From Promethearchaeota archaeon (GTDB lineage: Archaea > Asgardarchaeota > Lokiarchaeia > Sigyniarchaeales > SOKP01), in the NCBI GenBank assembly GCA_048937405.1, contig JBHLNF010000009.1:203196-223093 (forward strand): 19,898 bases of DNA. Reading direction: 5' to 3'. Each line of letters begins with the position of its first letter. Position 1 is the stretch's first letter. Position numbers and translations under genes: made by a program. The notes beneath the pieces are model-generated. The model searched no databases, was not told the DNA's origin, and was given only the letters and a program-made list of their open reading frames with translations. Below, in pieces: positions 16,056-19,898 of the stretch.

Positions 16056-16075
16056 TAATTATCAAGGTGCATAAA

Positions 16076-18718
16076 ATGTCAAAAAAATTATTAATTGTTT
16101 CTGTTATATTACTTGGGTTAGGTTCAGGTTTGATACCTGGAGGTATCATAATAGAGAATTATATTAATCAGAGAGTAGCAAATTCTGTTGATGAAGGACT
16201 ATTAGGAATTGAAGAAGAAGCGATTCCATTAATCGTGCCAATGATTAAAGATAAAGGAATTCCAAGAACACTCAGAAAAATTAGAGATGGAACAATTCCT
16301 ATAATTGAACAGACGATTAAAGAGAAGGGTATCCCACAGACACTAAGAGGCATAAGAGATGCAGCTATTCCAATCATTGAACCGATGATTAAAGAAAAGG
16401 GCATCCCACAGGTGTTAAGGGGCATTAGAGATACAGGAATTTTGTTTGTAGAAGATATGGTTGAAGCTACATTTGTAGCCGTGTTATTTGAAGTAATTGC
16501 TATAACTGGTGGTAATGTTTCAGGAACCCCTTTTGGACCTATAGGTATGGAGGCCTTCTTTAATGATCCTAATGCAGCTTGGGTCCTTGTATTTTCCAGT
16601 ATTTCAAAATTTCATGGCGAAAATCTTAGTTATACAGTAGATGCTCAAAATAGGATCTTATATGGAAACAGCACTACAGTCCCTGGTTATATTCCTGGTA
16701 TTCAAGGATTTCTTAATGATACATCAACAGGTGCAGGTGTGACAAAATTTTTAGAACAATATTACGCTGCTAATTCAAGTAGTACTCCTGATTTAAATAT
16801 GACAATGCAAGAAAAGTATAATTGTACTTGGTATCAACTTACTAAACTTGAAGAGTATGTAATGGATTTTATGATCAATTATGCAATCCCCCTTGTTATT
16901 GAGAATAATCTTCATGTTGAGTATATGCCCGAATTAGCAGGACTTCTTTCAGTTAATGCTATTGCAAGAGCTATGTTCATGGAACAATGGGCTAATGGTA
17001 CAATATTAGGTGATGTATTATATCCAGGAGGAATTGATTTTAGTGAAATGCTCGAAAGTGTAAATGAAAGTCTTGTTGGATTTGAGGTAGGACACCCATT
17101 CCCATCTAACATTACTCGAAAAGTAGCTTATGCGCTCTTCAATGATTCTTTATACTCAAATGCATTAACCAACGACACGGGAATTGAAATTTGGATTGAA
17201 GCTTATACAAATAATATAGTTAAAGAAATATTAAGAAATGAATTTAATCTGACCCAGACTCAAATGGAAATGATCCTCTCTTGGTTATTCGAAGAGTCAT
17301 TTAAGGATAATGTTGTTCCTGAACTCATGAAACTACCTCCTCCAGATGGAGTAGGTATGGGTGTAACTGAATATGCGAGAGTTCTTCTTTTAGAACAATG
17401 GACTAATGGCACAATATTAGGTGAAGTTATGTACCCGGGTGGAATTGATTTTAGTGAAATGCTTAAAGGAGTAACTCAAACTCTCGTTGGATTTGAAATA
17501 GGTCGTGAATCACCCTCAAACATAACACTGGATTCCGCTTTGGCACTCTTTGATGAAATCAACTACCCACATGCCTTAACTAATGATGATGGGATTGAAA
17601 CATGGATCTCTGCTTATACAAACGATACTACTAAAGATACATTGATAAATGAATTTAATCTGACCCTAACTCAGATGGATTTAATTCTCTATTGGCTATT
17701 CGATGAATCTTTTAAAGAGAATATCGTTCCTGAACTCATGAAATTACCCCCTCCGGATGGAGTTGGTAAAAATATAACAGAATACGCATTAGAACTTTTA
17801 ATGGAACAATGGGCTAATGGCACAATATTAGGTGAAGTTATGTACCCGGGTGGAATTGATTTTAGTGAGATGCGTGAAGAAATAACTCAAACTCTCGTTG
17901 GATTTGAAGTAGGGCGAACTTTTCCTTCTAATATTACACTTAAAATAGCTTTAGCACTCTTTGATGAAATTAATTACCCACATGCCTTAACTAATAAGAC
18001 AGGGATTATATCTTGGATCTCTGCTTATACAAACGATACTACTAAAGATACATTGATAAGTGAATTCAATCTGACTCAAGCTCAGATGGATTTAATCCTT
18101 TATTGGCTATTCGATGAATCTTTTAAAGAGAATATGGTTCCTGAGCTCATGAAATTACCTCCTCCCGATGGAGTTAGTATGAACATCACAGAATATGCAA
18201 GAGTTCTATTTTTAGAACAGTGGGCAAATGGTACGTCAGAAGGAGAAATTCTCTATCCTTATGGATATCCACTTTCATTAAAAGCTGGTATAATTTATGG
18301 CCTTGAAGTAGGATATCAGGGTAAGGACATGGCAGTATTGCCTACTAATATGTCATTAAAATCAGCTGAAAAACTATGGAATAATTCAAACGAATATTCA
18401 ATAGTGAATAAAGTAGGTCTTAAAAAATGGTTTACAGCAGTAAATAGTCCTAATTCATCAATAGCTAATGATTTGCAATCTACCAATTACTTAGAAAAAG
18501 ATGAAATGAATATGATTTTAAATTGGTTACCAAAGTTCAGAAATAATGTTATGCCATATCTCGCTCAAGAAGAAATGAATTTACCTTCAGATTCAAATAC
18601 ATATGCTAATTCAATCAAACTTGGAATGGGAATTCCCGGAGGGATTTCTATTGGCCTTGGTTTAGCAGGTATTACTAGTTTTGTAATTGTAAGAAAAAAA
18701 TCTAAAATAGTTCAATAA
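16076..18718 (+). CDS. Large repeat-containing cell-surface glycoprotein anchored by N- and C-terminal TM helices
   Basis: The ATG at 16076 follows an AGGTG SD (the track starts at GTG 16067). Hydrophobic termini carry Lys-rich short tails; there are more than 25 N-x-S/T sequons and internal 24-aa and 137-aa repeats. Confidence 0.85.
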   Translation: MSKKLLIVSVILLGLGSGLIPGGIIIENYINQRVANSVDEGLLGIEEEAIPLIVPMIKDKGIPRTLRKIRDGTIPIIEQTIKEKGIPQTLRGIRDAAIPIIEPMIKEKGIPQVLRGIRDTGILFVEDMVEATFVAVLFEVIAITGGNVSGTPFGPIGMEAFFNDPNAAWVLVFSSISKFHGENLSYTVDAQNRILYGNSTTVPGYIPGIQGFLNDTSTGAGVTKFLEQYYAANSSSTPDLNMTMQEKYNCTWYQLTKLEEYVMDFMINYAIPLVIENNLHVEYMPELAGLLSVNAIARAMFMEQWANGTILGDVLYPGGIDFSEMLESVNESLVGFEVGHPFPSNITRKVAYALFNDSLYSNALTNDTGIEIWIEAYTNNIVKEILRNEFNLTQTQMEMILSWLFEESFKDNVVPELMKLPPPDGVGMGVTEYARVLLLEQWTNGTILGEVMYPGGIDFSEMLKGVTQTLVGFEIGRESPSNITLDSALALFDEINYPHALTNDDGIETWISAYTNDTTKDTLINEFNLTLTQMDLILYWLFDESFKENIVPELMKLPPPDGVGKNITEYALELLMEQWANGTILGEVMYPGGIDFSEMREEITQTLVGFEVGRTFPSNITLKIALALFDEINYPHALTNKTGIISWISAYTNDTTKDTLISEFNLTQAQMDLILYWLFDESFKENMVPELMKLPPPDGVSMNITEYARVLFLEQWANGTSEGEILYPYGYPLSLKAGIIYGLEVGYQGKDMAVLPTNMSLKSAEKLWNNSNEYSIVNKVGLKKWFTAVNSPNSSIANDLQSTNYLEKDEMNMILNWLPKFRNNVMPYLAQEEMNLPSDSNTYANSIKLGMGIPGGISIGLGLAGITSFVIVRKKSKIVQ
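16220..16435 (+). repeat. Three tandem 72-nt (24-aa) coding repeats
   Basis: AIPLIVPMIKDKGIPRTLRKIRDG / TIPIIEQTIKEKGIPQTLRGIRDA / AIPIIEPMIKEKGIPQVLRGIRDT, starting at 16220, 16292 and 16364. Confidence 0.92.
16982..18560 (+). repeat. 411-nt (137-aa) tandem coding repeats: three well-conserved copies plus a diverged fourth
   Basis: EQW(A/T)NGT codons start at 16982, 17393, 17804 and 18215, an exact 411-nt period. Confidence 0.95.
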
Positions 18719-18949: not shown

Positions 18950-19609
18950 ATGTCTTATGTTTATATGAAAGCATTGGAAACTAAAGCAGAAAAATATGAT
19001 AAAGGAATAAAGAATATAACATTAGGACGTTTACCAAAAATTAAAAAATATATTGCAGATAATTTAGTTTATGAGAATGAGAATCTTTTAGATATTGGTA
19101 TGGGAACGGGAACGTTCGCTATTTTATGTGCTAAAAAAGGAATAAATATTACTGGCATTGACTATTCAGAAAAAATGCTTGAAGTTGCAAAGAAAAATAT
19201 TGAACAAGAAGGCTTAACTGAAAGTATTCAAATTATTGAAATGCCAGTTATTGAATTAGATGAGAAATTTGCTGAAAAATCTTTTGATAAAATAACAGCT
19301 ATACTATCATTCAGTGAGTTATACCAAAAAGAACAAGATTATACTTTAAGTCAAATATATCGGATTCTAAAAGAAAATGGCGAATTTATACTTGTAGATG
19401 AAGTAAAACCCAAAAAACTTTGGAAAAAAATTATTTATTTTATTATTAGAATACCACTTGTGCTAATTACATTTTTAAAATCTCAGTTAACAACAAAGAG
19501 ATTAAAGGACATTGAAAAAAGATTAGAAGCACATAATTTTAAAATTATTGAAGAAAAATTATACCTATTAGATACATTAAAATTATTTAGAACTAAAAAA
19601 ATGGATTGA
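18950..19609 (+). CDS. cpaM: Class I SAM-dependent methyltransferase resembling the corrinoid protein-associated methyltransferase (CpaM) family
   Basis: SAM motif LLDIGMGTG, GIDYSEKML.VAKK, FDKI, LKENGEFILVDE. The N-terminus MSYVYMKALE....YDKGI..ITLG and LSFSEL resemble CpaM as I recall it, and the gene overlaps a corrinoid-protein gene. Confidence 0.72.
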   Translation: MSYVYMKALETKAEKYDKGIKNITLGRLPKIKKYIADNLVYENENLLDIGMGTGTFAILCAKKGINITGIDYSEKMLEVAKKNIEQEGLTESIQIIEMPVIELDEKFAEKSFDKITAILSFSELYQKEQDYTLSQIYRILKENGEFILVDEVKPKKLWKKIIYFIIRIPLVLITFLKSQLTTKRLKDIEKRLEAHNFKIIEEKLYLLDTLKLFRTKKMD

Positions 19610-19898
19610 AACTAAAATTGATAATAAAAAAAGCATTAAATTTATTTGGAGGATATTTCTTTCGATGGGTAGGGTTTTCTACCGAACCAGATCTTATTAA
19701 GATTGGAAATCCAGATAAGAAAAGCCCTGTATTTTTGACATGTAACTTCAGTATTACTGTAAAAAGAGTTCTAAAAGCATTAAAGGGTCTTGACTGTTAT
19801 TTACTCATTGCTCCTTCAAAGGGAATAAATGTTTGGTGTGGAGCTTGCGGGGATGATTTTACGACAGATTCTGTCATTTCTATAATTAAAATCAGTGG
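19606..19898 (+). CDS. 5' part of an HgcA-like (CdhD/CFeSP-family) corrinoid-binding protein, possibly an HgcAB-like fusion; truncated by the window edge
   Basis: Frame +1 is open from TTG at 19606 to the end: MKLKLIIKKALNLFGGYFFRWVGFSTEPDLIKIGNPDKKSPVFLTCNFSITVKRVLKALKGLDCYLLIAPSKGINVWCGACGDDFTTDSVISIIKIS. It matches the HgcA pattern G.PD..SPVL.T.N......L...L....LL...+GINVWC. Confidence 0.88.
   Translation, partial: MKLKLIIKKALNLFGGYFFRWVGFSTEPDLIKIGNPDKKSPVFLTCNFSITVKRVLKALKGLDCYLLIAPSKGINVWCGACGDDFTTDSVISIIKIS

Follow-up and report, generated by a model that had tools for sequence, protein, structure and literature searches.

A CpaM methyltransferase gene next to an assembly-cut HgcAB-like fusion gene in a Promethearchaeota genome

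What do the last two reading frames of a 19,898-nt stretch of Promethearchaeota DNA (the window) encode, and what could their products do together? An earlier note had read them as a class I SAM methyltransferase translationally coupled to an uncalled HgcA-like corrinoid protein, and had proposed a newly spotted, uncharacterised metal(loid)-methylation system in an Asgard-type archaeon. Based on family models, a near-identical contig, a tree and two surveys of related loci, we identify the genes, with near certainty, as those of the corrinoid protein-associated methyltransferase CpaM and of an HgcAB-like fusion protein. The pair in the window is an ordinary, contig-cut copy of an already catalogued two-gene module.

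The first gene, cpaM, lies on the forward strand at 18950..19609 (ATG at 18950, TGA at 19607-19609) and encodes 219 aa. The second frame, on the same strand at 19606..19898, comprises 97 codons of the 5′ part of the HgcAB-like fusion protein gene, contains both the IGNPDKKSPVFLTCN and the GINVWCGACGDDF motifs and stays open through the final base of the window. The window corresponds to C27:203196-223093 (contig JBHLNF010000009.1, here C27) and contig C27 is 223093 nt long, so that the end of the window coincides with the end of the contig. The HgcAB-like gene is therefore cut by the assembly and is neither overlooked nor broken, and its frame received no gene call because it runs into the assembly end. 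The uncalled frame of the earlier note is thus real, but it is simply a contig-end fragment. A search with the NF043039 profile did not find the 3′ part of the gene on other contigs of the genome: at profile positions 88-215 the only genomic matches came from a paralogue (C27:129146) and from CdhE, whose gene is on contig C7.

If translation of the second gene starts at the first TTG, the two genes share the 4 nt TTGA (19606..19609, forward strand), read in the sequence ...ATGGATTGA..., and this overlap would point to translational coupling. The overlap that the earlier note described is present in the sequence, but the start may instead be the second in-frame TTG at window position 19618, which leaves an 8-nt gap after the CpaM stop. 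On L118, a contig with 99.96% identity, the gene caller chose this start, and ATG-started HgcAB-like orthologues align at the same codon. From the sequence, we regard the start codon as uncertain, with TTG 19618 as good a candidate as TTG 19606. Under either start the two genes are closely packed, with a 4-nt overlap or an 8-nt gap. Among relatives, −4 is the most frequent spacing between cpaM and the HgcAB-like gene.

The product of the first gene matches NF043040, the NCBIfam model for CpaM (hypothetical equivalog type), at 256 bits against a cut-off of 180 and over profile positions 1-215 of 216. It also matches Pfam Methyltransf_31/25/11 (E about 1e-18), and these matches bear out the earlier assignment to the class I SAM methyltransferases. 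Database proteins 86-90% identical to it bear the NCBI name CpaM and come from Promethearchaeota and other Asgard MAGs. The Asgard archaeal host that had been proposed from the sequence agrees with these closest relatives.

SAM-binding motif I reads LLDIGMGTG (residues 46-54, 19085..19111, forward strand). In an alignment of 56 CpaM sequences (A3), its residues G50, G52, T53 and G54 are invariant and D71, in the GID of motif II, is nearly so; the class I SAM-binding motifs of the window copy are intact. Conservation in the same 56 sequences further extends to an N-terminal segment, SYVxMKxLE...RYDxGI, to D113, S122, E123, E128 and E151 alongside D71, and to a moderately hydrophobic insertion at about 160-182 (RxPL...TQTTT). 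This insertion might, speculatively, be a docking or membrane-facing element. A PDB sequence search with CpaM returned only generic class I methyltransferases. Our literature search found no paper on CpaM or on a corrinoid protein-associated methyltransferase, and none that links a fused HgcAB-like protein with a methyltransferase.

Against NF043039 (HgcAB-like fusion protein; 350 profile positions), the 97-aa fragment of the second protein aligns at positions 6-87 and scores 141 bits, a value limited by the contig end relative to the cut-off of 285 bits. With E = 7e-41 this match is well above chance. The cap-helix region GINVWCGACGDDF is encoded at 19822-19860 of the forward strand, with GINVWC at 19822-19839 and the codon of Cys78 at 19837-19839. 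G73 to C78 (GINVWC) are invariant in an alignment of 59 HgcAB-like sequences (A4), and Cys78 is the presumed cobalt-ligating thiolate. A second cap-helix cysteine, C81, is confined to sub-clades. From homology, we infer that the protein binds a cobamide.

The rest of the gene can be read from contig JBHLNB010000043.1 of another assembly (L118, 28 kb), which encodes an identical CpaM sequence. L118 matches the last 6949 nt of the window with 99.957% identity (3 mismatches) and extends past the break. There the HgcAB-like gene encodes 363 aa without a frameshift, and its first 93 residues are 100% identical to the window fragment. In L118 the frame is thus intact downstream, where the earlier note had allowed for a frameshift. 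The 363-aa protein consists, in order, of a corrinoid domain, a hydrophobic membrane domain and a C-terminal fused ferredoxin with two CX2CX2CX3C motifs; the membrane and ferredoxin parts lie beyond the 97 codons of the window assembly and are deduced from this near-identical strain. It scores 374.6 bits against NF043039 (cut-off 285). Same-genus orthologues score 362-375 bits. One of these, L019, is 88% identical to the window fragment, and proteins 85-99% identical to L019 bear the NCBI name HgcAB-like fusion protein and come from Promethearchaeota and other Asgard MAGs.

Upstream of the pair, the gene of an 883-aa membrane protein (16067-18718) contains internal repeats with a 411-nt period at window positions 16982-18231. 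In the BLAST comparison of the window tail with L118, secondary matches are offset by 411 nt, with 79.8% identity over 843 nt. The orthologue of this membrane protein in L118 is called as 880 aa.

An AlphaFold2 model of the 88% identical orthologue L019 (pLDDT 93.6, pTM 0.89) has four long helices, at 162-190, 196-219, 225-246 and 251-269, between the corrinoid domain and the ferredoxin. The model replaces crude hydropathy helix counts, which were inconsistent. Canonical HgcA is usually given five membrane helices, compared to the four of this model. An even number of membrane helices would place the ferredoxin and the corrinoid domain on the same side of the membrane. Structurally, the model comes closest to a published model of HgcAB (314 columns) and to the CFeSP large subunit, whose B12 domain aligns with an rmsd of 2.1-2.5 Å over about 127 columns. 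No solved HgcA or HgcAB-like protein was found in a PDB sequence search. Together, the L118 gene and the L019 model contain the membrane helices and 2x[4Fe-4S] ferredoxin that the earlier note had envisaged downstream, in fused form.

To place the fragment we used a quick maximum-likelihood tree of 96 HgcA 'heads', with the CdhE of the same genome as root; the search was short, the single outgroup sits on a long branch and the window fragment fills 31% of the columns. Canonical HgcA forms one clade (21 rows, SH-aLRT 98) and the fused HgcAB-like sequences another (67 rows, SH-aLRT 95), while Asgard methyltransferase-HgcA fusions form a long-stemmed clade (7 rows, SH-aLRT 100). The window fragment falls within an Asgard sub-clade of the fused clade (17 rows, SH-aLRT 100), next to Hadarchaeota and Bathyarchaeota sequences. 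The CdhE of contig C7 is placed outside the HgcA and HgcAB-like clades.

Is the pairing a feature of this locus or of the family? Applying the NF043040 and NF043039 cut-offs to 41 genomes of the same order, we found CpaM in 10 genomes and the HgcAB-like protein in 9 of those 10; the tenth is the window's own genome, with its copy cut by the contig end. The two genes are adjacent on the same contig in all ten, and the remaining 31 genomes have neither. The sole interruption among the ten is in L027 (G040:C78), where a 308-aa gene separates cpaM (1003-1659) from the HgcAB-like gene (2649 onwards).

A wider survey took one genome per species and covered 80 loci from many bacterial and archaeal phyla, which we sorted by cap-helix motif, ferredoxin fusion and tree into 59 HgcAB-like and 21 canonical HgcA loci. 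Based on a CpaM HMM built from database relatives of the window CpaM, a CpaM-like methyltransferase is adjacent or N-terminally fused at 56 of the 59 HgcAB-like loci, compared to none of the 21 canonical hgcA loci. A separate CpaM-like gene lies directly upstream at 44 of these loci, often with a spacing of −4; one is at a distance of 1.8 kb and another is truncated where its contig ends. At 12 further loci the corrinoid protein itself begins with the methyltransferase, and these fusions are 567-629 aa long. The cap helix reads NVWCA(A/S)GK in all canonical HgcA sequences (21/21), followed by GTFG in 19 of them, and none of the 21 has a fused ferredoxin. The pairing that the earlier note reported at a single locus is thus conserved elsewhere, and the name CpaM presumably records it. 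The HgcAB-like loci with no CpaM nearby are L061 (Thorarchaeota), L069 (Heimdallarchaeota) and L079 (FCB group bacterium). L061 and L069 pair together in the tree and both have an extra hydrophobic N-terminus, and in L079 an ArsR-type regulator gene is immediately upstream of the HgcAB-like gene.

The triple fusions, with methyltransferase, corrinoid, membrane and ferredoxin domains in one protein (L058, L062, L063, L064, L066, L068, L072, L073, L075, L076, L080 and L081), come from bacterial MAGs, including the Olavius symbiont Delta 1, and form one clade (SH-aLRT 99). This clade spans Desulfobacterota, Bacteroidota, Calditrichota, Spirochaetota, Lentisphaerota and Bacillota, which suggests horizontal spread.

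A second module is found on the same contig 93 kb upstream, at G000:C27:128384-130072 and 130125-130430 (L003:739-2427 and 2480-2785). Its first gene encodes a 562-aa protein that joins three parts: a methyltransferase resembling CpaM, which at 130 bits stays under the cut-off, a corrinoid domain of HgcA type with the motif NVWCAARGNNF, and a membrane domain. This protein lacks a ferredoxin. Downstream is a gene for a separate 101-aa HgcB-like 2x[4Fe-4S] ferredoxin ending in SCCG, and a MarR gene lies upstream. The genome thereby holds two paralogous arrangements, CpaM plus a corrinoid-membrane-ferredoxin protein and a methyltransferase-corrinoid-membrane protein plus a ferredoxin. The second module occurs in most genomes of the genus, is widespread in Asgard MAGs and, in the tree, makes up a long-stemmed clade of its own. 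It is less catalogued than the CpaM/HgcAB-like pair: NCBI labels fusions of the 562-aa type only 'methyltransferase domain-containing protein'. As judged from its domain make-up, this fusion also argues for a functional tie between the CpaM-like domain and an HgcA-type corrinoid protein.

Clustering of the flanking ORFs at the 59 HgcAB-like loci did not find a universal third partner. The largest extra clusters are antisense shadow ORFs of high-GC genomes, and the genuine neighbours (ArsR, TetR, ABC-2 permease and ABC ATPase) are lineage-specific. With their ArsR and TetR regulators and ABC-2 exporters, these lineage-specific neighbours may point to a toxic-compound response. Four genes lie downstream of the pair in L118 (L118:7879-11183). 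One is an ORF of 105 aa that runs on the opposite strand and matched no family; the others encode a PEMT-like membrane methyltransferase (243 aa, 27 bits), a protein of 187 aa resembling deazaflavin-dependent nitroreductases (PF04075) and a CLC channel. A PF04075-like gene adjoins the pair also in L019-L022, and a 212-aa hydrophobic ORF lies upstream of it in L024.

What could the two proteins do together? The best explanation, very probable as a whole in our view, is that the window ends within a CpaM/HgcAB-like operon, whose most likely mechanism would move a methyl group from SAM via a Cys-ligated cobamide to an acceptor. CpaM is a soluble Rossmann-fold SAM methyltransferase and its partner a membrane corrinoid/ferredoxin protein. 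The fused ferredoxin domain would reduce the cobamide to Co(I); CpaM would then dock at the corrinoid domain and pass the SAM methyl group to cobalt; and the Cys-ligated methyl-Co(III) would hand it to an acceptor at the membrane domain. For the loading step itself, from SAM through CpaM to cobalt, the balance tips only slightly in favour. Purified canonical HgcAB provides a precedent for the chemistry: once reduced at low potential to Co(I), its cobalamin accepts the methyl group of SAM, and the methyl carrier is a Cys-ligated methylcob(III)alamin (PMC11588087).

Co-folding of CpaM with the full orthologous partner, an approach that the earlier note had suggested for the pair, gave a weak score: an ipSAE of 0.43 (runs at 0.63, 0.43 and 0.43), compared to 0.01 for the best control. 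The partner has a pLDDT of at least 75 and at least 53% of contacts are common to the runs. The mark used is attained by 58 of 80 solved complexes and by 2 of 110 mismatched pairs, and scores at or below 0.60 account for 7 of the 80 solved complexes plus both mismatches. The co-fold lends weak support to a direct contact between CpaM and its partner and, given the high prior from the natural fusions, we take it as mildly confirmatory.

The two proteins could also form one unit in which CpaM is not the cobalt loader. The corrinoid and ferredoxin domains would carry out reductive chemistry at the membrane, such as halomethane dehalogenation, and CpaM would use SAM to methylate the substrate or the product directly. 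Canonical HgcAB uses SAM without a separate methyltransferase (PMC11588087), and CpaM could accordingly serve some such other purpose. A 2026 preprint reports that heterologously expressed canonical HgcAB dechlorinates CCl4, and the ArsR or TetR regulators and ABC-2 exporters next to the bacterial pairs would suit a toxic-compound response. Against this, the methyltransferase is directly N-terminal of the corrinoid domain in the 12 natural fusions, the co-fold weakly favours direct contact, and we found neither a dehalogenase-type signature nor a conserved third gene across the loci. We consider a non-loading CpaM improbable.

The remaining alternatives concern the identity of the second gene. 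That it encodes a true mercury methylase, an HgcA with HgcB fused to it, would fit the corrinoid domain, N-V-W-C cap helix, membrane domain and ferredoxin that are all common with HgcAB. Yet the canonical HgcA model (NF040863, cut-off 275) gives the 97-aa fragment 71.6 bits and the L118 full-length protein 170.1 bits, NVWCGACG is absent from the accepted cap-helix motifs N(V/I)WC(A/S)(A/G/S)GK (PMC10087281), and the fused HgcAB-like clade is separate from canonical HgcA in the tree. Moreover, Pyrococcus furiosus and Methanococcoides methylutens, which carry fused HgcAB, made methylmercury at or below the level of controls. A mercury methylase is therefore very unlikely. The assays of these two cultured organisms also speak against mercury as acceptor, and the metal(loid) acceptor of the earlier note was pure speculation. 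The Pfam result, with CdhD (PF03599) at 39.8 bits as the only match of the fragment, would suggest an ordinary Wood-Ljungdahl CFeSP subunit (CdhE/AcsC). However, NF003195, which models the gamma subunit of acetyl-CoA synthase (cut-off 306), gives 45.9 bits for the fragment and 79.3 bits for the L118 protein, in both cases over the C-terminal B12 domain only; the complete protein contains membrane helices and ends in a ferredoxin, and the Fe-S and TIM-barrel parts that CdhE has at its N-terminus are missing from it; and the genome already has a separate 485-aa CdhE on contig C7. Family scores and tree rule this identity out, with a vanishingly small residual chance, and they sustain the earlier view of a corrinoid protein that is related to HgcA and resembles the fused HgcAB proteins, as opposed to an ordinary CdhD/AcsC. 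A broken remnant in the window genome would explain why only 97 codons are present and the missing part is on no other contig, but the frame stops exactly at the contig end and the 99.957% identical contig has an intact 363-aa gene, which makes a remnant hardly credible. The canonical HgcA and pseudogene readings were thus also considered and rejected.

How does the pair compare with known systems? The proteins treated as 'fused HgcAB' by Podar et al. 2015, Gilmour et al. 2018, Capo et al. 2022 and Lin et al. 2023 are those of the NF043039 family. Domain order, clade and family score (of the near-identical full-length copy) agree with it, and nothing substantial sets the window copy apart except its truncation at the contig end; the cap helix of its Asgard sub-clade is the variant NVWCGACGDD, which includes a second Cys. 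CpaM likewise conforms to its family in score, intact SAM motifs and position immediately upstream of the HgcAB-like gene, with no difference. The claim of a newly spotted system is not supported, since both families are curated by NCBIfam, the genes are named in Asgard MAGs and fused HgcAB has already been published for Lokiarchaeota and Thorarchaeota. Surveys leave such fused sequences out of 'true' hgcA (PMC10087281).

With canonical HgcA/HgcB (NF040863, NF040864) the system has in common a homologous corrinoid domain, the Cys of the cap helix, anchoring in the membrane and a ferredoxin as partner. It differs in scoring below the HgcA cut-off, in a cap helix without GK, in a ferredoxin that is fused in L118 and orthologues with no separate hgcB, in the dedicated SAM methyltransferase at the locus and in the absence of mercury methylation by the two cultured organisms with the fused form. 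For canonical HgcAB, SAM is the shown methyl donor. The pair also resembles CFeSP with its methyltransferase MeTr (AcsCD/AcsE, PDB 4DJD), where a separate methyltransferase loads a protein-bound corrinoid, as CpaM would do here, and where the B12 domain is homologous. In the CFeSP/MeTr system a TIM-barrel enzyme transfers the methyl group of methyl-tetrahydrofolate to a soluble corrinoid protein, which passes it on to the Ni site of acetyl-CoA synthase; the CpaM/HgcAB-like pair has, in contrast, a Rossmann-fold SAM enzyme and a corrinoid protein in the membrane.

The acceptor is probably other than Hg(II), and any one particular acceptor is at best an unlikely guess. Tentatively, the pair may carry out SAM-driven, cobamide-mediated methyl transfer to a natural acceptor other than mercury, for instance a metalloid, a C1 compound that carries halogen or a molecule associated with the membrane, with the two paralogous versions in this genome perhaps specialised for different acceptors; this is a possibility that we do not hold firmly. 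The identification and the mechanism proposed in the earlier note were, in themselves, reasonable.

The window copy adds little to what is known; its value is modest and lies first in confirming the pairing rule on independent loci. The near-identical contig L118 provides a complete operon for cloning, and the differently fused paralogue in the same genome allows a side-by-side comparison. The ancestral role of the HgcAB superfamily is a question in mercury biogeochemistry, and the fused branch with its obligatory SAM methyltransferase is an obvious place to look. If the reading of a non-mercury acceptor is true, the pair would be a handle on the pre-mercury function of the HgcAB superfamily.
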